Below, piece by piece: positions 2,427-11,299 of a stretch of DNA of 14,331 bases. The stretch is from a virus (taxonomy: Duplodnaviria; Heunggongvirae; Uroviricota; Caudoviricetes). A program made the position numbers and the translations under genes. How positions within the stretch are numbered: the stretch's first letter is position 1; every line of letters starts with the position of its first letter. The stretch spans positions 1 to 14,331 of the IMG/VR virus record IMGVR_UViG_2778261418_000001; one strand, 5' to 3'. Under the pieces are notes generated by a model. It had not been told where the DNA came from. It was given only the letters and a program-made list of their open reading frames with translations, and did no database searches.

Positions 2427-3031
2427 TAAGCAGCCGCTCCTTCTAATTCGTCTCGTCTGATGTTGTAAACGTCCTGCGCTTTGTGCTGCTCCGGTGTTCC
2501 TTCGAGCATCTTCCACGCTTTGGCGAACGCCTGTTTAAGATCTTCCACGGTGTTTTTTTGCATTGCTGCGTCAGTGAATGCTTTTAGAACCTGTTCAGGT
2601 GTAGGTGATGGTTTTGATTGCTTTGCTGCTGCGTTCTGCTGATGTTTATGTTCGTCGGTATCTGCATCTTTCGCATCATCAATGCCGAACAAACCATTGA
2701 GGCAATACTTGCGTGCATAAGAGCTTGTAGCTCCCGTAACTTGTGCAGAATCCATTCCTTTCTTGCTTTCTTCCTCTCGTGCAAGAGCAGTTGCCGTATG
2801 ACTGTTTTCGCCATCGGTAATAGTTGCCGTGGCTTTCACGTAATACCGATCACCAATCAACACAACTTCATCGCTGATTGATAAAAACAGGCCATTCAGT
2901 AACGGCTTAACGCCTTCAAGAATGTCTTCGCAGCTTCTGTATTTATATTTTCCGAATGAGTTGTACTGATTCTTTGGCGCGTTCAGATTCTCCTGAATGG
3001 CTGCCAGTCTTGCGTAAAATTCTTTGCTCAT
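2426..3031 (-). CDS. erf: single-strand annealing recombinase, ERF-family candidate
   Basis: From MSKEFYARL the protein matches P22 Erf as recalled from memory, in both sequence and ~200-aa size. Position matches P22 (downstream of cIII/kil). The upstream TTG start has no RBS. Confidence 0.65.
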   Translation of the reverse strand: MSKEFYARLAAIQENLNAPKNQYNSFGKYKYRSCEDILEGVKPLLNGLFLSISDEVVLIGDRYYVKATATITDGENSHTATALAREEESKKGMDSAQVTGATSSYARKYCLNGLFGIDDAKDADTDEHKHQQNAAAKQSKPSPTPEQVLKAFTDAAMQKNTVEDLKQAFAKAWKMLEGTPEQHKAQDVYNIRRDELEGAAA

Positions 3032-3132
3032 ATGATTGTTCTCAGAATGGACATGGCCCAAGGAAATAACGCTGATTTAATACTTCGACTCGGGACAAAT
3101 TAAGGCATACCCGCATTCCTTCGCGGTCACCA

Positions 3133-3291
3133 TTATGGCGATACCAGAGAGCTTTCTGCGTGTACATGCGTCTCTGTAACTTGCTCTCCTTCACTGTGGT
3201 TGCAAGTGACATGAATATCTCCTTCGTTACCGATTAATTCTTTCATCTGACGAATGAATTCTTCGTCTGACCAGTTATCTGTAAAACTCAT
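3133..3291 (-). CDS. small protein (52 aa) in the kil position
   Basis: ATG at 3291 overlaps the cIII stop (ATGA). Lambda and P22 have kil immediately downstream of cIII. No sequence confirmation. Confidence 0.35.
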   Translation of the reverse strand: MSFTDNWSDEEFIRQMKELIGNEGDIHVTCNHSEGEQVTETHVHAESSLVSP

Positions 3292-3458
3292 GGACGGCCT
3301 TGTTGTTTCAAAATATCCCAAAGCTTTTCGAGCAAGCTTTTCATTCTTGGTTGTTTAAAGTCTGCTCCGGTTAAAATGTTTTTTCGTGAATGCTGTACCG
3401 ATAAAATCGGGTTGAAAGGGCGAACCGATGCCGCCCCTGCAATAGCGAACTGCTGCAT
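3288..3458 (-). CDS. cIII: CIII-like protein (56 aa), inhibitor of FtsH-mediated CII degradation
   Basis: Not in the ORF track. ATG at 3458 with AGAAGGAG Shine-Dalgarno. Translation MQQFAIAGAASVRPFNPILSVQHSRKNILTGADFKQPRMKSLLEKLWDILKQQGRP resembles lambda CIII (MQYAIAGW... / ...WKRLIDILNQPG). Confidence 0.65.
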   Translation of the reverse strand: MQQFAIAGAASVRPFNPILSVQHSRKNILTGADFKQPRMKSLLEKLWDILKQQGRP

Positions 3459-3534
3459 AGGATGCTCCTTCTGTTTGATTGCATAACGAAAAACGCCTCG
3501 AGTGAAGCGTTATTGGTATGCGGTAACGCCGCGC

Positions 3535-3903
3535 TCAGGCGGCTTTGATAGTCATATCATCTGAATCAAATATTCCTGATGTATCGATATCGGTAATTCT
3601 TATTCCTTCGCTACCATCCATTGTAGGCCATCCTTCCTGACCATTTCCATCATTCCAGTCGAACTCACACACAACACCATATGCATTTAAGTCGCTTGAA
3701 ATTGCTATAAGCAGAGCATGTTGCGCCAGCATGATTAATACAGCATTTAATACAGAGCCGTGTTTATTGAGTCGGTATTCAGAGTCTGACCAGAAATTAT
3801 TAATCTGGTGAAGTTTTTCCTCTGTCATTACGTCATGGTCGATTTCAATTTCTATTGATGCTTTCCAGTCGTAATCAATGATGTATTTTTTGATGTTTGA
3901 CAT
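3535..3903 (-). CDS. hypothetical protein (122 aa), acidic
   Basis: ATG at 3903 with GAGGA RBS. Lies in the sieB/ral/ea10-equivalent variable slot. No family recognised. Confidence 0.55.
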   Translation of the reverse strand: MSNIKKYIIDYDWKASIEIEIDHDVMTEEKLHQINNFWSDSEYRLNKHGSVLNAVLIMLAQHALLIAISSDLNAYGVVCEFDWNDGNGQEGWPTMDGSEGIRITDIDTSGIFDSDDMTIKAA

Positions 3904-3921
3904 CTATTCATATCCTCACAG

Positions 3922-3948
3922 AAAAAAATCGCCCTCACATCGGAGGGC
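3922..3948 (-). terminator. intrinsic terminator-like hairpin just upstream of the 122-aa gene
   Basis: On the minus strand: GCCCTC-cgatgt-GAGGGC followed by GATTTTTTT, about 19 nt before the RBS. Confidence 0.5.
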
Positions 3949-4052
3949 AAAGAAGATTTCCAATAATCAGAACAAGTCGGCTCCTGTTTAGTTACGAGCG
4001 ACATTGCTCCGTGTATTCACTCGTTGGAATGAATACACAGTGCTTATTTGTA

Positions 4053-4523
4053 CTAATAAAATACCCAATTTTCTGTTTCTTGGTTGTGTCCAAAGTTATA
4101 TTCAATATCTGGTGTTGATGTATCAATATTTTTCATCCCATCAACAAGAGTTGATACAACAGCCAAATCTTGTTTTATTCTCATTAAATGGTATTTCTTC
4201 CGGCGCAATAAACTTTCAATAGCAAGTTTCTTCGTTGGGAATGCAAAAGATCTTTCTGCATTTTTTGCTACTTTCTTAATTGCATATCTATTTCTCCTTT
4301 GTTTCCATTCCTGTAACCACTGATTTGGTGCTGGTTTAAAATCAACAATCCAATGCGCAGGAACCAACCATGCATAATGCTCTGTCTGATGAAAAGCTAT
4401 ATATTGAAGTGCGAATATTTTTATCCCATCTTCTTCAACTGTCGCCTGGAATCTCCAGAAAACAGGCATTCCATCATGTTCAGTTTCTGATTCAGGAAAA
4501 GGTACGCTCCATGATTTTGTCAT
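4053..4523 (-). CDS. hypothetical protein (156 aa)
   Basis: ATG at 4523 with GAGGTG Shine-Dalgarno. The RBS overlaps the stop of the N-like remnant, as expected for the native gene downstream of N. No family recognised. Confidence 0.55.
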   Translation of the reverse strand: MTKSWSVPFPESETEHDGMPVFWRFQATVEEDGIKIFALQYIAFHQTEHYAWLVPAHWIVDFKPAPNQWLQEWKQRRNRYAIKKVAKNAERSFAFPTKKLAIESLLRRKKYHLMRIKQDLAVVSTLVDGMKNIDTSTPDIEYNFGHNQETENWVFY

Positions 4524-4531
4524 ATCTCACC

Positions 4532-4624
4532 TCAAATAAGTGGTTTGCTGCCTAATTTCATTTTCTGGCGACCAACACAAGTCACACCCATTTCACTGCG
4601 TGGCTTGCTGTAGTAAATACGGTT
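4532..4624 (-). pseudogene. N: 3' remnant of an N-type antiterminator gene (C-terminal ~30 codons only)
   Basis: Minus-strand frame translates to NRIYYSKPRSEMGVTCVGRQKMKLGSKPLI-stop, matching the conserved C-terminus of lambda N (YSKPGERGITCSGRQKIKGKSIPLI). The frame is closed by TAA at 4673-4675, has no start codon, and differs from the upstream 147-aa ORF frame. Confidence 0.6.
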
Positions 4625-4630
4625 ATTTAT

Positions 4631-4657
4631 GTAATAAAAAACCCGCCTTAGCGGGTT
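4631..4657 (-). terminator. intrinsic terminator after the 147-aa gene
   Basis: Minus strand: AACCCGC-taag-GCGGGTT followed by TTTTTATT, directly after the 147-aa stop codon. Confidence 0.6.
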
Positions 4658-4658
4658 A

Positions 4659-5102
4659 TTATTTCTTTGGATTTAGCTTTTCCATGTTCTCTGCGATCGT
4701 ACCTATTCTTGACCTTATTGTTGGAATATCAATTCCTCTCTGTATGTCTACATTTAAAGACATAAGCTCTCTGCTCCATCCTGCGATCGCATCGTGAAAT
4801 TGTCTTGCCCTGCTTGCTTGTCTACGTCTGCTGCTTTCAAGCTCTGTAAGCATTTGCTTTGCTTCGATCTGAGACTTGCCTTGCCCAACTCCCAATGCAT
4901 CGATTGCACATTGCCTCATCTCTGCTTTTATCAAAGGGTGAAGATTTTCAGCGCCAATAAAAATTACCTCGTCTATGCTTTTAAAAAGCAGAAGGCAATC
5001 AGTAACAACTTTGGTTCTTTTATCATCACACCTTACCTCTACCGAAGGTACGCCGCCATATTGCTTAACTCTCATTGCCGTGTAAACTGTAGCACTCTTC
5101 AA
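4659..5102 (-). CDS. hypothetical protein (147 aa) occupying the N position; TTG start
   Basis: AAGGAGG Shine-Dalgarno 5 nt before TTG at 5102. First gene after pL. Internal Arg-rich stretch SSRRRQASRARQ. No resemblance to lambda, 21 or P22 N. Confidence 0.55.
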   Translation of the reverse strand: MKSATVYTAMRVKQYGGVPSVEVRCDDKRTKVVTDCLLLFKSIDEVIFIGAENLHPLIKAEMRQCAIDALGVGQGKSQIEAKQMLTELESSRRRQASRARQFHDAIAGWSRELMSLNVDIQRGIDIPTIRSRIGTIAENMEKLNPKK

Positions 5103-5130
5103 ATCAGCCTCCTTTTTCTTTTTCTATATC

Positions 5131-5170
5131 AAAAAGCTGCTTTGCTTTTTGTGACTAAAAGCAAAAAAGC
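5131..5170 (-). promoter_or_regulatory. large hairpin plus U-run in the pL leader, preceded by a boxA-like motif
   Basis: Minus-strand RNA: GCUUUUUUGCUUUU-agucac-AAAAGCAAAGCAGC (14-bp stem, one mismatch) then UUUUU, ending ~17 nt before the RBS. TGCTCATTA lies ~10 nt 5' of the hairpin (boxA consensus CGCTCTTTA). Confidence 0.45.
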
Positions 5171-5259
5171 CTTCTCGCTAATGAGCAGCATTGCCGTTCA
5201 TCCTGAACCCGCCGCGCTCCCGACGCATGGTTTAATGTCGCGCCGTTCGACATGGCTTA

Positions 5260-5301
5260 ACTATACCCAAAGCTATTATTGCTGTAAATAGCTATAGTTA
5301 T
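5260..5301 (-). promoter_or_regulatory. OL/pL: leftward early promoter with overlapping repressor operators
   Basis: Minus strand -35 TTTACA (plus 5283-5288), 17-bp spacer, -10 TATAGT (plus 5260-5265). Operator-like sites ATACC-caaa-GCTAT (5263-5276) and ATAGC-tata-GTTAT (5288-5301), same architecture as OR. Confidence 0.6.
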
Positions 5302-5390
5302 AAAATAACTCCTTTGGTTATTTAGTCATTGATATCTAATGTAATTTATTTTTCTTGTATGTGAGATTTGGTGTTTTTTGGGCAATAAAA

Positions 5391-5409
5391 AACCCGCAAA
5401 AAGCGGGTT
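5391..5409 (-). terminator. intrinsic terminator downstream of cI
   Basis: Stem AACCCGC/GCGGGTT with 5-nt loop. On the minus strand it is followed by TTTTATT. 19 bp past the cI stop. Confidence 0.6.
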
Positions 5410-5427
5410 TGTTGTGGTGTGATGAGG

Positions 5428-6159
5428 TTAGTAGTCAACTACAGACCACCAGAAGATTCTTCCGATGATCTCGATATCGCTTAGATTCTTTTCTTCTTGT
5501 GGGTATTCCAGTGAGTTAAAGCTTCTAATGCTTACCTTGTCAGGCCCTGATCGAAAGAGAATCTTAATGCGTTTCCAACCGTTCTCGTTAATGGCGTAAA
5601 TCTTTCCGTCAACTATTTTCTTATCGTTGGTGTTAACAGCAACTGTTGTTCCATCAGGAATGTTTGGCTCCATGCTGTTGCCACGAGCCGGAAAACAAAC
5701 AACCCCGCTTCCATCACTGTTCGCGCCAACTCTGCGAAGGGTTGATTTGGAGAAGCGCAACATAAAGCCGTTGTGATCTTCATCAATCACCCGACCATCC
5801 CCGCATGCAAACTCAATATCTTTAAGGTAAGGAACTTCAACTTCATCACCTCTTAAAGGCGTTCCTCCATCCCATGGGTCCAAATATCCCCACGTGCTTT
5901 CATGAGGAATAGAAGATTTTGGATTATAAGGTTCAACTCCCTCATCACGCATTGGCCCAGTCCCATCGGAAAGCCATTCCGTACGAACTCCAAGCACTTT
6001 TGATATTTCAAAAAGTTTGCGCGTATTGCGTGTTTTTCCAGACGTAAGTTTCCAGACGCTTGGCTGAGACATGCCAACAGCATTGCCAAGAGAAGCCTGA
6101 GTAAACCCAGCCTGATCCATCGCGTATGTAAGCCTTTGAGAAAAAGTATCTAGTTTCAT
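5428..6159 (-). CDS. cI: CI-type prophage repressor (HTH N-domain plus LexA-like S24 autopeptidase C-domain)
   Basis: N-terminal XRE-type HTH (QASLGNAVGMSQPSVWKL). C-terminal S24 fold with the Ser motif GNSMEP and Lys in KRIK. Divergent from cro, flanked by operators; mRNA appears leaderless from pRM. Confidence 0.85.
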   Translation of the reverse strand: MKLDTFSQRLTYAMDQAGFTQASLGNAVGMSQPSVWKLTSGKTRNTRKLFEISKVLGVRTEWLSDGTGPMRDEGVEPYNPKSSIPHESTWGYLDPWDGGTPLRGDEVEVPYLKDIEFACGDGRVIDEDHNGFMLRFSKSTLRRVGANSDGSGVVCFPARGNSMEPNIPDGTTVAVNTNDKKIVDGKIYAINENGWKRIKILFRSGPDKVSIRSFNSLEYPQEEKNLSDIEIIGRIFWWSVVDY

Positions 6160-6946: not shown

Positions 6947-7591
6947 ATGACATACGAAAATGACAAATTCCAGGTTCTGAAGAGCATGAAGGTTCCAGAT
7001 GATTTTAAATCAAATGGCTTTGTTTATGTGCTTTCGAATGAGTGCATGCCAGGAATTTATAAGATTGGGATGACTAAGCATTCACCAGAAGTTAGGGCTA
7101 AAGAAATTTCAGCCTCTACTGGCGTTCCTAAGCCATTTAAGGTGATAGCAGCCTTTCATTCAAATAATCCCGCATCAGATGAAAAACTCATTCATAAAGC
7201 CTTTGCAAAAGAGAGGCTTAGTGATAATCGAGAGTTTTTCAAGCTTGAAGATAATGATCTTTCTGAATCTCTAAATGAAATAAGGGCGCTGGTTGGCCCT
7301 GAAAGAAATGGCGAGACGGCAGAATACGCAATTTACGACTCATTCATTTCTTTTCGCCATGAAAATGAGCTTGATCTTAATGAGGAGCTTATAGAGCAAG
7401 GTCTGGGTAGTGTAGTTGGTCATCTTCCTGCGGTGAAAAATTTCCTTATTCGCGCCGGAATTGATTACGCGAAGCAACTGATAAGCAAATATAACTCATC
7501 GATAGTTATTAATACAGATGGCAGTGTGGTGATGGTTAAGTCTCTTGAAGCCCAATGCTTTGATGCGGAGGTTGGAAATGAGCCTTGCTGA
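6947..7591 (+). CDS. T5orf172 (GIY-YIG-like) domain protein; moron between cII and O
   Basis: GGAG RBS. N-terminal GFVYVLSNECMPGIYKIGMTKHSPEVRAKEI ... REFFKL matches the T5orf172/MUG113 GIY-YIG-related pattern. Lambda has cII directly followed by O. Confidence 0.65.
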   Translation: MTYENDKFQVLKSMKVPDDFKSNGFVYVLSNECMPGIYKIGMTKHSPEVRAKEISASTGVPKPFKVIAAFHSNNPASDEKLIHKAFAKERLSDNREFFKLEDNDLSESLNEIRALVGPERNGETAEYAIYDSFISFRHENELDLNEELIEQGLGSVVGHLPAVKNFLIRAGIDYAKQLISKYNSSIVINTDGSVVMVKSLEAQCFDAEVGNEPC

Positions 7592-9628: not shown

Positions 9629-10069
9629 ATGAAAAAACTAACCTTTGAAATTCGATCCCCAGCACATCAGCAAAACGCTATTCACGCGGTACAGCAAATT
9701 CTTCCAGACCCAACCAAACCAATCGTAGTGACCATCCAGGAACGCAACCGCAGCTTAGACCAAAATCGGAAGCTTTGGGCTTGCTTAGGTGACGTCTCTC
9801 GTCAGGTTGAATGGCATGGTCGCTGGCTGGATGCAGAAAGCTGGAAGTGTGTGTTTACCGCAGCATTAAAGCAGCAGGACGTTGTTCCTAACCTTGCCGG
9901 GAATGGCTTTGTGGTAATAGGCCAGTCAACCAGCAGGATGCGTGTAAGCGAATTTGCGGAGCTATTAGAGCTTATACAGGCATTCGGTACAGAGCGTGGC
10001 GTTAAGTGGTCAGACGAAGCGCGACTGGCTCTCGAATGGAAAGCGCGATGGGGAGATCGGGCTGCATGA
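9629..10069 (+). CDS. ninB: NinB recombination protein
   Basis: From MKKLTFEIRSPAHQQNAIHAVQQILPDPTKP... the protein is essentially identical to lambda NinB as recalled from memory. Confidence 0.9.
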   Translation: MKKLTFEIRSPAHQQNAIHAVQQILPDPTKPIVVTIQERNRSLDQNRKLWACLGDVSRQVEWHGRWLDAESWKCVFTAALKQQDVVPNLAGNGFVVIGQSTSRMRVSEFAELLELIQAFGTERGVKWSDEARLALEWKARWGDRAA

Positions 10070-10590
10070 CTATCAAATCAAATACGCCAGCGTCAGATAG
10101 GTATCGGCTTATTGAGGATTATCTGTATTTAGACGGAGATACAGTCAGGTACAAAAAGGACTCGCTAAAACACCCCAACCACAGCCACCGGGCCGGAGAT
10201 GAAATTAAAACATCGATAAATGGATCTGGGTATAGACAGGTGTGTTTTGCAGGCATTCAGATGTTTGTTCACGTAGTTGTTTTTGCGCTGCACAACAAAA
10301 GAATGCCATTGAAAAATATTGACCATATTAACGGAAACAGGCTGGACAATTCCCCAAAAAATCTTAGGGAGGCAAGCCGGATAGCAAACAGCCGAAATCA
10401 GAAAACTAAGTGCAATAGCCGTTCTGGAATAAAAAATGTTTTATGGAACAAGCAAAAAAATAAATGGGCCGTTCAAGTGCGCACAGATTTTGGCCGGTTG
10501 CATTTTGGGTTCTATGAAGATCTTGAGCTTGCTGGTTTGGTTGCCAGTGAGGCTATCAACAAATATCACGGACAATATGCGAGGGTTTAA
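10066..10590 (+). CDS. HNH endonuclease with AP2-like DNA-binding domain (free-standing homing-endonuclease type)
   Basis: ATG 10066 overlaps the ninB stop (ATGA). HNH motif IDHINGNRLDNSPKNLR. C-terminal AP2-like WNKQKNKWAVQV...GFYEDLELAG. Inserted between ninB and the next nin gene. Confidence 0.8.
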   Translation: MTIKSNTPASDRYRLIEDYLYLDGDTVRYKKDSLKHPNHSHRAGDEIKTSINGSGYRQVCFAGIQMFVHVVVFALHNKRMPLKNIDHINGNRLDNSPKNLREASRIANSRNQKTKCNSRSGIKNVLWNKQKNKWAVQVRTDFGRLHFGFYEDLELAGLVASEAINKYHGQYARV

Positions 10591-11120
10591 TGATTAAGCA
10601 TAAATCAGAAACACCAAAAGAAGTTAGAGACTGCTGGCAAACGCCGCTTTGGCTTTTTGATGCACTGGATATTGAGTTTGGATTCTGGCTGGATTCGGCA
10701 GCGAGCGACAAAAATGCTCTGTGCGCTCACTGGCTAACTGAGGCCGACGACGCACTCAATTCTGAGTGGATAAGCCACGGTGCAATCTGGAATAACCCAC
10801 CGTACAGCAATATCAGGCCGTGGGTGGAAAAAGCCGCTGAGCAGTGCATACAACAGCGACAGACGGTAGTGATGCTTGTGCCAGAGGATATGTCTGTCGG
10901 ATGGTTCAGCAAGGCTCTGGAGAGTGTTGACGAAGTTCGCATTATCACTGATGGACGGATTAATTTTATCGAACCATCGACAGGGCTGGAGAAGAAGGGA
11001 AACAGTAAAGGCTCCATGCTGCTGATTTGGCGACCGTTCATCAGTCCTCGACGGATGTTTACTACCGTATCCAAAGCGGCATTGATGGCGATCGGGCAGG
11101 GCGTCAGGAGGGCGGCATGA
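10590..11120 (+). CDS. dam: phage Dam-type DNA N6-adenine methyltransferase
   Basis: Catalytic NPPY motif (IWNNPPYSN), size and nin-region position typical of phage orphan N6-adenine methyltransferases. TAATG overlap with the HNH gene. Confidence 0.8.
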
Positions 11121-11299
11121 GACGACAGCGACGAAGTATCACCGACATAATCTGCGAAAACTGCAAATACCTTCCAACGAAGCGCTCCAGAAATAAACGC
11201 AAGCAAATCCCAAAAGAATCTGACGTAAAAACCTTCAATTACACGGCTCACCTGTGGGATATCCGGTGGCTTAGAGAACGTGCGAGGAAAACAAGGTGA
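11117..11299 (+). CDS. ninE: NinE
   Basis: [60 protein letters not shown] is near-identical to lambda NinE as recalled. ATGA overlap with dam. Confidence 0.85.

Follow-up and report, generated by a model that had tools for sequence, protein, structure and literature searches.

The free-standing homing endonuclease genes of T-even phages (mobE, segG and others) engage in intronless homing: their products cut a nearby conserved gene in genomes that lack them, carriers being protected by sequence differences at the site and flanking markers being co-converted. Homing endonucleases of the HNH-AP2 type are an acknowledged family, and in phages the genes for homing endonucleases are often located within or next to conserved genes (Barth et al. 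2023, PMC10448857). Here we analyse a 14,331-nucleotide (nt) stretch of viral DNA (IMG/VR record IMGVR_UViG_2778261418_000001; hereafter the window) in which an open reading frame (ORF) with an HNH domain separates ninB from dam, a gene for a phage N6-adenine methyltransferase. Published ninR maps include HNH genes (PMC4118853); our literature search for this ninB–dam insertion found no prior description. The ORF is probably a free-standing homing endonuclease gene of the I-HmuI-like HNH plus AP2 type, from a lineage specialised on the 5′ end of phage dam genes of the PF05869 family.

The C-terminal DNA-binding part of I-HmuI is a helix-turn-helix, not an AP2 domain. I-HmuI itself (Bacillus phage SPO1, PDB code 1u3e) is an intron-encoded HNH homing endonuclease, whereas the window gene is free-standing, with no intron. 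The HNH-AP2 enzymes of phages, cyanobacteria and protists, including 'IPA-HNH' of vibriophage ICP1, have the same N-terminal HNH and C-terminal AP2 order, and the HNH-AP2 homing endonuclease genes also stand free, next to or inside conserved phage genes and at boundaries of genetic exchange (PMC10448857). The ICP1 IPA-HNH genes have diverged beyond the reach of the Pfam HNH_3 profile (PMC10448857), which the window protein matches, and the HNH-AP2 comparison set is associated with replication, ribonucleotide reductase, terminase and structural genes, whereas the window gene belongs to temperate lambdoid prophages and has a non-essential accessory gene, dam, as its predicted target. The 'ShiLan domain' of actinobacteriophage (Arsenault et al. 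2025, PMC11855218) also places a patchily distributed HNH element in a non-essential DNA methylase gene that apparently stays functional; there, however, the HNH lies out of frame within an in-frame insertion in mid-methylase, whereas the window HNH has an ORF of its own, which is joined to the original methylase start at the far 5′ end of that gene, and the methylase gains a new start. Methylase families and hosts differ as well. Gene 31 of phage epsilon34 (Villafane et al. 2008, PMC2629481) is another HNH gene that captures the N terminus and start codon of a resident gene, but it lies in the early left operon, invades another gene and belongs to another HNH lineage, with no replacement start copy described. 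For the T-even enzymes, cutting and marker exclusion have been shown experimentally, in virulent phages with frequent co-infection; for the window element, cutting is predicted and exclusion of insert-less phages is possible.

Alignment with phages SfI and 434, whose ninB is 97–98% identical to that of the window, reveals the anatomy of the insertion. In these phages, which carry the common or A-type allele, ninB and dam are contiguous, and dam starts at an ATGA overlap with ninB (protein MTIKSNTPAHDKDCWQTP...); its start is annotated at the very ATG that opens the HNH ORF in the window. The junction reads ...GGGCTGCATGACTATCAAATCAAATACGCCAGCACACGACAAGGACTGCTGGCAAACGCCGC... in the A-type phages 434, HK140 and VT2-Sakai. 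Relative to this allele, the 10 nt ACACGACAAG between dam codons 9 and 14 have been exchanged for a 537-nt cassette, with sharp junctions at 10091/10092 and 10628/10629. The HNH ORF is thereby fused in frame to the first nine codons of dam (MTIKSNTPA/SDRYRL...) and uses dam's start codon, its ribosome-binding site (GGAG in the 3′ end of ninB) and its translational coupling to ninB. Past the HNH stop, dam begins anew, with a 14-codon N terminus that is homologous to the A-type one but differs from it and leads into CWQTP... (the B-type allele). The 3′ end of the cassette supplies this N terminus together with its start codon and a new ribosome-binding site, GAGGG, so dam stays intact. On either side, ninB and the dam body (from 10629 onwards) form left and right homology arms. 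The original prediction, made from the letters of the window, was of a mobile insertion placed cleanly between ninB and dam. Its mobile character stands; a clean intergenic position does not, given that 10 nt inside the dam coding sequence are replaced, the dam start is captured and a substitute 5′ end is carried. The coordinates and the ATGA and TAATG overlaps that it listed all proved correct (Table 1), the TAATG being particular to the window copy: in 17 of 18 full-length relatives the ORF ends in GTTGAATGA, one codon later, and overlaps dam by ATGA.

Two surveys place this arrangement among its relatives, one of 5,426 complete Escherichia coli genomes (dam counted at ≥95% identity) and one of 95 distinct loci from RefSeq and IMG/VR (68 A-type, 27 B-type). 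The same dam occurs at 2,193 places in 1,566 of the complete genomes; the cassette occurs in 34 genomes, each time adjoining dam. Linkage between the HNH gene and the B-type start is complete: 68 of 68 A-type loci lack the HNH gene, every HNH gene is followed by a B-type start, and all 27 distinct B-type loci carry the HNH gene or a scar of it. The gene is missing from each of 427 matching phage records. Empty sites, sought in relatives for the predicted homing-endonuclease-type insertion, are therefore abundant, the HNH gene is far from uniformly present, and this part of the prediction was borne out. Beyond these loci, the phage collection held no close copy (best tblastn match 46% identity), the plasmid collection gave no match, and the species-representative genomes gave one distant relative (39% identity); the cassette is rare outside the sampled E. 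coli, E. albertii and Salmonella. We considered whether the A-type allele might be a deletion derivative of the HNH-bearing allele and rejected this, as ACACGACAAG is not derivable from the HNH-bearing sequence; further reasons are that the A- and B-type N termini are colinear homologues (TPxxx[KR]DCW) and that the distant Dam of locus L124 has an A-like N terminus.

The HNH protein has the make-up of a homing endonuclease. Its HNH_3 core spans residues 67–110, and an alignment of homologues shows that the family-invariant H69, D86, H87, N99 and N108 are all kept. The Pfam AP2 profile matches neither the window protein nor its C-terminal 54 residues, even at E≤10. Across the family, however, the C-terminal region is colinear, PF00847 (AP2) matches 16 of 50 aligned homologues (best 1.5e-10), and an AlphaFold2 model of the window protein (mean predicted local distance difference test score 89.5) ends in three strands and a long helix. 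The AP2 label accordingly leans on structure and family evidence, because HNH_3 is the sole Pfam match of the window copy; with this qualification, the earlier naming of the gene as an HNH/AP2 endonuclease was apt, and the description as an I-HmuI-like HNH protein with a predicted C-terminal AP2 fold holds. With the HNH_3 or I-HmuI-like homing endonucleases it shares a nuclease core with conserved catalytic and metal-binding residues, an attached DNA-binding module (AP2) and presence/absence polymorphism at one fixed site. A sequence search of the PDB with the HNH protein returned a chance match only, and neither PADLOC (defence systems) nor NCBIfam gave a match for it.

The methylase appears to be a resident of the locus rather than a partner of the nuclease. 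Window Dam scores 220.9 bits against PF05869 (cut-off 28.1) and 262.2 bits against TIGR01712 (cut-off 97.05), carries the NPPY catalytic motif (NNPPY at residues 67–71) and matches PADLOC orphan-methyltransferase models. Its orphan status is clear from its neighbours, all of nin-region or phage regulatory families, and from the ~98% of dam copies that have no HNH gene. The original prediction had suggested that the two genes act together as an exclusion module; in a restriction–modification-like form, the HNH enzyme would attack DNA that lacks phage Dam methylation and Dam would protect the carrier. In keeping with such a pair, the HNH gene adjoins a PF05869 Dam in three divergent lineages, dam is unbroken in every HNH-bearing locus, and lambda-type ninB contains a GATC 11 nt ahead of the shared start codon. 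That GATC is missing from the ninB′ background, however. The methylase stands alone at ~2,150 of its 2,193 places, which is not the organisation of a type II restriction–modification system, and while 11 of 29 B-type loci have a deleted or broken nuclease gene, the dam ORF is full-length in all 98 loci checked. Host Dam of E. coli already methylates GATC on all phages in Dam+ hosts, so that methylation could not tell carriers from non-carriers. The orphan methylase of the VT2-Sakai prophage, M.EcoVT2Dam, is reported to be GATC-specific (Forde et al. 2019, PMC6602927, citing Radlinska & Bujnicki 2001); window Dam is 97% identical to VT2-Sakai orf32, with nearly all differences in the swapped N terminus, and would be expected to share this specificity. 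An anti-restriction or protective role, also proposed at first, is not supported by these observations: the specificity reported for the VT2-Sakai methylase is that of host Dam. An insertion inside the dam frame at fixed boundaries is the signature of an insertion site and not of an operon partnership, and the predicted homing-endonuclease architecture, with a sequence-specific AP2 domain and no PADLOC defence-system match, points the same way. We therefore regard a nuclease–methylase pair as very unlikely. The adjacency of the two genes would instead follow from dam being both the insertion site and the homing site, and we read dam as a probable target and resident gene.

Nuclease and methylase have also fared differently over time. 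Seven B-type loci without the HNH gene fall into four junction types, three of which keep 41, 29 or ~12 nt of the gene at microhomologies. The first leaves a 13-codon relic, ATGACTATCA joined to ACAAATATCAC...TGA, by deletion at a CTATCAA repeat; the second keeps the final 29 nt; in the third the deletion lies at GAGGG; and the fourth is a precise ATGA-to-ATGA junction. Strains E2, FDAARGOS_944 and E308, whose scar alleles have lost the HNH gene, still have the GAGGG motif; TW10590 is another strain with a scarred B-type allele. Other copies are broken by a premature stop (G121*, locus L024), by a frameshift (L026) or by an IS100 insertion (L012 and L027), and among database proteins there are frameshifted and truncated versions as well. 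In L012 (E. coli 503440, 633–2434) and L027, IS100 lies between ninB and the HNH remainder, the 5′ end of the HNH gene having been removed. The frameshifted variants (P0002) diverge at residues encoded by window 10452–10462, where an A-rich run, gcaaaaaaataaa, may be a slippage-prone spot. That dam is intact throughout while the HNH gene is often broken indicates that dam is maintained and the nuclease is dispensable in the short term.

The cassette occurs on several backgrounds, with identical boundaries in all loci. It is found behind at least three ninB/ybcN families and ahead of several downstream gene sets, and in the dam body all four gametes (polymorphisms common to HNH-bearing and empty alleles) are present from +15 nt past the junction. 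Mapping of co-conversion tracts gave no single-nucleotide polymorphism fixed between HNH-bearing and empty alleles in the dam body, polymorphisms being common to both up to the junction. In one and the same set of 19 loci, the cassette has a nucleotide diversity of 0.0086, 2.5-fold lower than the 0.0213 of the dam body. Ten locus pairs have identical cassettes with 9–14 differences in the dam body (488 nt), so that identical cassettes sit on dam backgrounds 2–3% apart, including two co-resident prophages of one strain. This pattern is consistent with homing or gene conversion between co-resident prophages, and also with ordinary recombination.

Homologues show the association with dam behind other genes as well. 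On the metagenomic contig L009, a 78%-identical homologue directly precedes a divergent PF05869 dam with a B-like N terminus, MIKHKSQTPIESRD, and lies behind a DUF1367 gene and not ninB. Between this homologue and the window gene, dN is 0.15 and dS 1.58 (nonsynonymous and synonymous divergence), and the resulting dN/dS of ~0.09 indicates long-term purifying selection on the HNH protein. In L124, the gene for a 50%-identical homologue is likewise followed at once by a PF05869 dam, and ribonucleotide reductase and thioredoxin genes precede it. P0028, a more distant relative with 50% identity across 63% of the query, has a different setting, among virion-structural genes. The simplest reading of these alleles and contexts is a homing endonuclease clade whose homing site would be the 5′ end of the PF05869 dam family.

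These contexts bear on a further proposal, that the HNH protein is a recombination accessory nuclease working with NinB (Orf), as has been suggested for the NinB–HNH fusions of Gram-positive phages. Such fusions are described (Balaji & Aravind 2007, PMC2034487; Curtis et al. 2014, PMC4118853), and the HNH ORF of the window is translationally coupled to ninB. The gene is nevertheless sporadic and often broken; it is tied to the dam allele and not to the type of ninB, three ninB/ybcN families being represented and relatives standing behind DUF1367 or thioredoxin genes; and the HNH part of the Gram-positive fusions is described as a DUF968-family zinc-finger HNH motif and not as HNH_3-AP2 (PMC4118853). 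An accessory role to NinB is thus hard to credit.

Several observations weigh against a homing endonuclease that is at work in these phages today. Only ~2% of E. coli copies of the window dam carry the cassette; recent variation within the E. coli cassette looks near-neutral (17 nonsynonymous to 6 synonymous changes); and the HNH gene is deleted or broken in ~38% of B-type loci. For these reasons the element may be largely inactive now. The window copy itself lacks the last residue of its relatives, E175 being replaced by a stop codon. The alleles document only a single original insertion event. In the 78%-identical homologue, the MTxKS start of the HNH protein may be native or dam-derived, a point that bears on the origin of the duplicated dam 5′ end. 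The homing activity is a prediction, and the target site is deduced from allele comparison only. Free recombination of lambdoid phages could, moreover, yield the mosaic and linkage patterns without nuclease-driven conversion.

This last point leads to a passive mosaic module, inserted once and then shuffled among lambdoid prophages by homologous recombination, with the nuclease inert or unrelated to its spread. A single boundary pair in all loci, the low frequency, the near-neutral recent substitutions, the many pseudogenes and the highly mosaic character of lambdoid nin regions in general would all suit it. It accounts poorly for the strong long-term purifying selection, for the low diversity of the cassette relative to its flanks and for the perfectly identical tract in two co-resident prophages. 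The position upstream of dam is also conserved in three unrelated phage contexts, which is hard to explain unless the nuclease maintains the linkage. We consider passive shuffling unlikely and favour a homing endonuclease gene.

A homing cycle at this locus would probably run as follows. During lytic growth or on induction, the HNH gene would be expressed along with the other genes of the delayed-early nin operon, and in lambdoid phages that co-infect or share the host, the enzyme would nick or cut the insert-less (A-type) dam 5′ region. Its predicted target, ~50 bp long, falls within ...CATGACTATCAAATCAAATACGCCAGCACACGACAAGGACTGCTGGCAAACGCCGC.... Repair off the HNH-bearing copy, through the homology arms of ninB and the dam body, would copy the cassette in. 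Carriers would be immune, their site being split and the dam 5′ end recoded; the carrier allele does differ from the empty allele across the junction, and the B-type dam 5′ end is a candidate immunity patch over the predicted target. After spread, the nuclease would be without short-term selection in prophages and would decay or be deleted, leaving the B-type dam start as a scar. A bolder version makes the cassette an active interference weapon, whose enzyme would cut the A-type dam 5′ end of most E. coli lambdoid phages, including the Shiga toxin (Stx)-converting VT2-Sakai, and so depress or convert competitors, with the recoded 14-codon start as immunity determinant and with such nucleases as a general driver of mosaic boundaries in nin regions. 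We regard this as possible but doubtful.

For one homing endonuclease gene of temperate lambdoid phages, the locus offers a natural series that is resolved in detail, with naive, occupied, decaying and scarred sites, and a cassette that carries its own patch to keep the invaded gene working. Homing has been studied mostly in virulent phages; lambdoid prophages, often several per chromosome, would allow a direct test between co-residents. Should the enzyme prove active, Stx-converting phages also carry its predicted target, and nucleases of this kind could help to explain where nin mosaic boundaries fall. As it stands, the cassette looks like an ordinary selfish element and not a new system.

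Table 1. Coordinates of the ninB–dam region and its parts in the window.
Feature	Position	Strand	Evidence
ninB (orf), recombination mediator gene	9629–10069	+	Pfam NinB 1.1e-54
HNH-AP2 endonuclease ORF (putative), 174 amino acids/codons	10066–10590	+	Pfam HNH_3 4.6e-11; phrog_99 'HNH endonuclease' 9e-43
dam, orphan phage N6-adenine methyltransferase, 176 amino acids	10590–11120	+	Pfam PF05869 1.1e-65; TIGR01712 phage_N6A_met 1.3e-78
ninE, next operon gene after dam	11117–11299	+	Pfam NinE 6.9e-42
ninB stop/HNH start overlap, ATGA	10066–10069		
HNH stop/dam start overlap, TAATG	10588–10592		
dam stop/ninE start overlap, ATGA	11117–11120		
First 26 nt (codons 1–9, MTIKSNTPA) of A-type dam, now 5′ end of HNH ORF	10066–10091	+	Same as dam start in SfI, 434
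Cassette: HNH body and replacement dam 5′ end, 537 nt, missing from empty alleles	10092–10628	+	Allele alignment
Predicted AP2-like DNA-binding domain, HNH residues ~121–171, three beta strands then long helix	10426–10578	+	
GAGGG Shine–Dalgarno-like motif in HNH 3′ end, 5 nt 5′ of new dam start codon	10581–10585	+	Read from sequence
B-type replacement dam 5′ end	10590–10628	+	Tied to HNH or its remnants

Gene annotation identifies the window as the early and nin region of a mosaic lambdoid prophage. Its left part holds abc2, erf, a cI-like repressor gene, cro, cII, the replication O gene and a DnaC-like loader gene; its right part runs from ninB, the HNH ORF and dam through ninE, ninF, an ant/KilAC gene, ybcO, rusA and ninH to Q. 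This layout speaks to one more role for the HNH protein, in packaging, where a nuclease of the HK97 gp74 type would aid terminase. HNH proteins of this kind exist in lambdoid-type phages and are also mentioned in PMC11855218. The window gene, however, belongs to the nin operon, with ninB before it and ninE after it, far from terminase genes, and most relatives lack it. In a related HNH-bearing prophage (L003), genes for a DNA-packaging protein, large terminase, portal and scaffolding protein are encoded >6 kb downstream, a layout that we take to be headful and P22-like, with no need for a gp74-type HNH. We give a packaging function almost no credence.

Elsewhere in the window, ORFs of 147–165 amino acids lie between the early-left genes and the repressor gene (4053–5291): 4053–4523 (−), 4659–5102 (−) and 4794–5291 (+). 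None of the three has a Pfam match, and the two minus-strand ORFs have no NCBIfam match. Between cII and the replication O gene, a 214-amino-acid ORF (6947–7591, +) has a T5orf172/MUG113 domain (2e-15 / 4e-16), is labelled 'GIY-YIG nuclease family protein' in the NCBI annotation of a related E. coli prophage and matches the PADLOC candidate defence models PDC-S57 and PD-Lambda-1. It is present in one of 179 phage records that match this stretch (CurroJimenez_Bas106), the others matching the cII end only, and it is a possible second insertion in the window prophage, of a homing-endonuclease-like or defence kind.

Related loci show further methylase and nuclease genes. The nin region of L009 holds two methylase genes, with a PF00145 cytosine-C5 methylase gene (3447–4553) between ninE and ninF. 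L003 (E. coli GPEC1446), the prophage with the dam cassette mentioned above, also has an unrelated HNH-AP2-like gene (5115–5778, −) beside a truncated N antiterminator gene. In Stx1-converting phages, a 38%-identical HNH-AP2 gene (L008, phage AU6Stx1, 2902–3507) lies immediately upstream of ninG and overlaps it, another nin site for the HNH-AP2 family. L013 (E. coli E200086, NZ_CM128605.1) has three different HNH-AP2-type genes in one nin region (2530–3547, 3544–4071 and 5133–5848). At its ninB, a 32-residue N-terminal fragment of NinB is followed by an HNH gene and then by ninB, the same order of start fragment, nuclease and restored gene as at dam, and the third HNH gene interrupts ninF, leaving 5′ and 3′ pieces.

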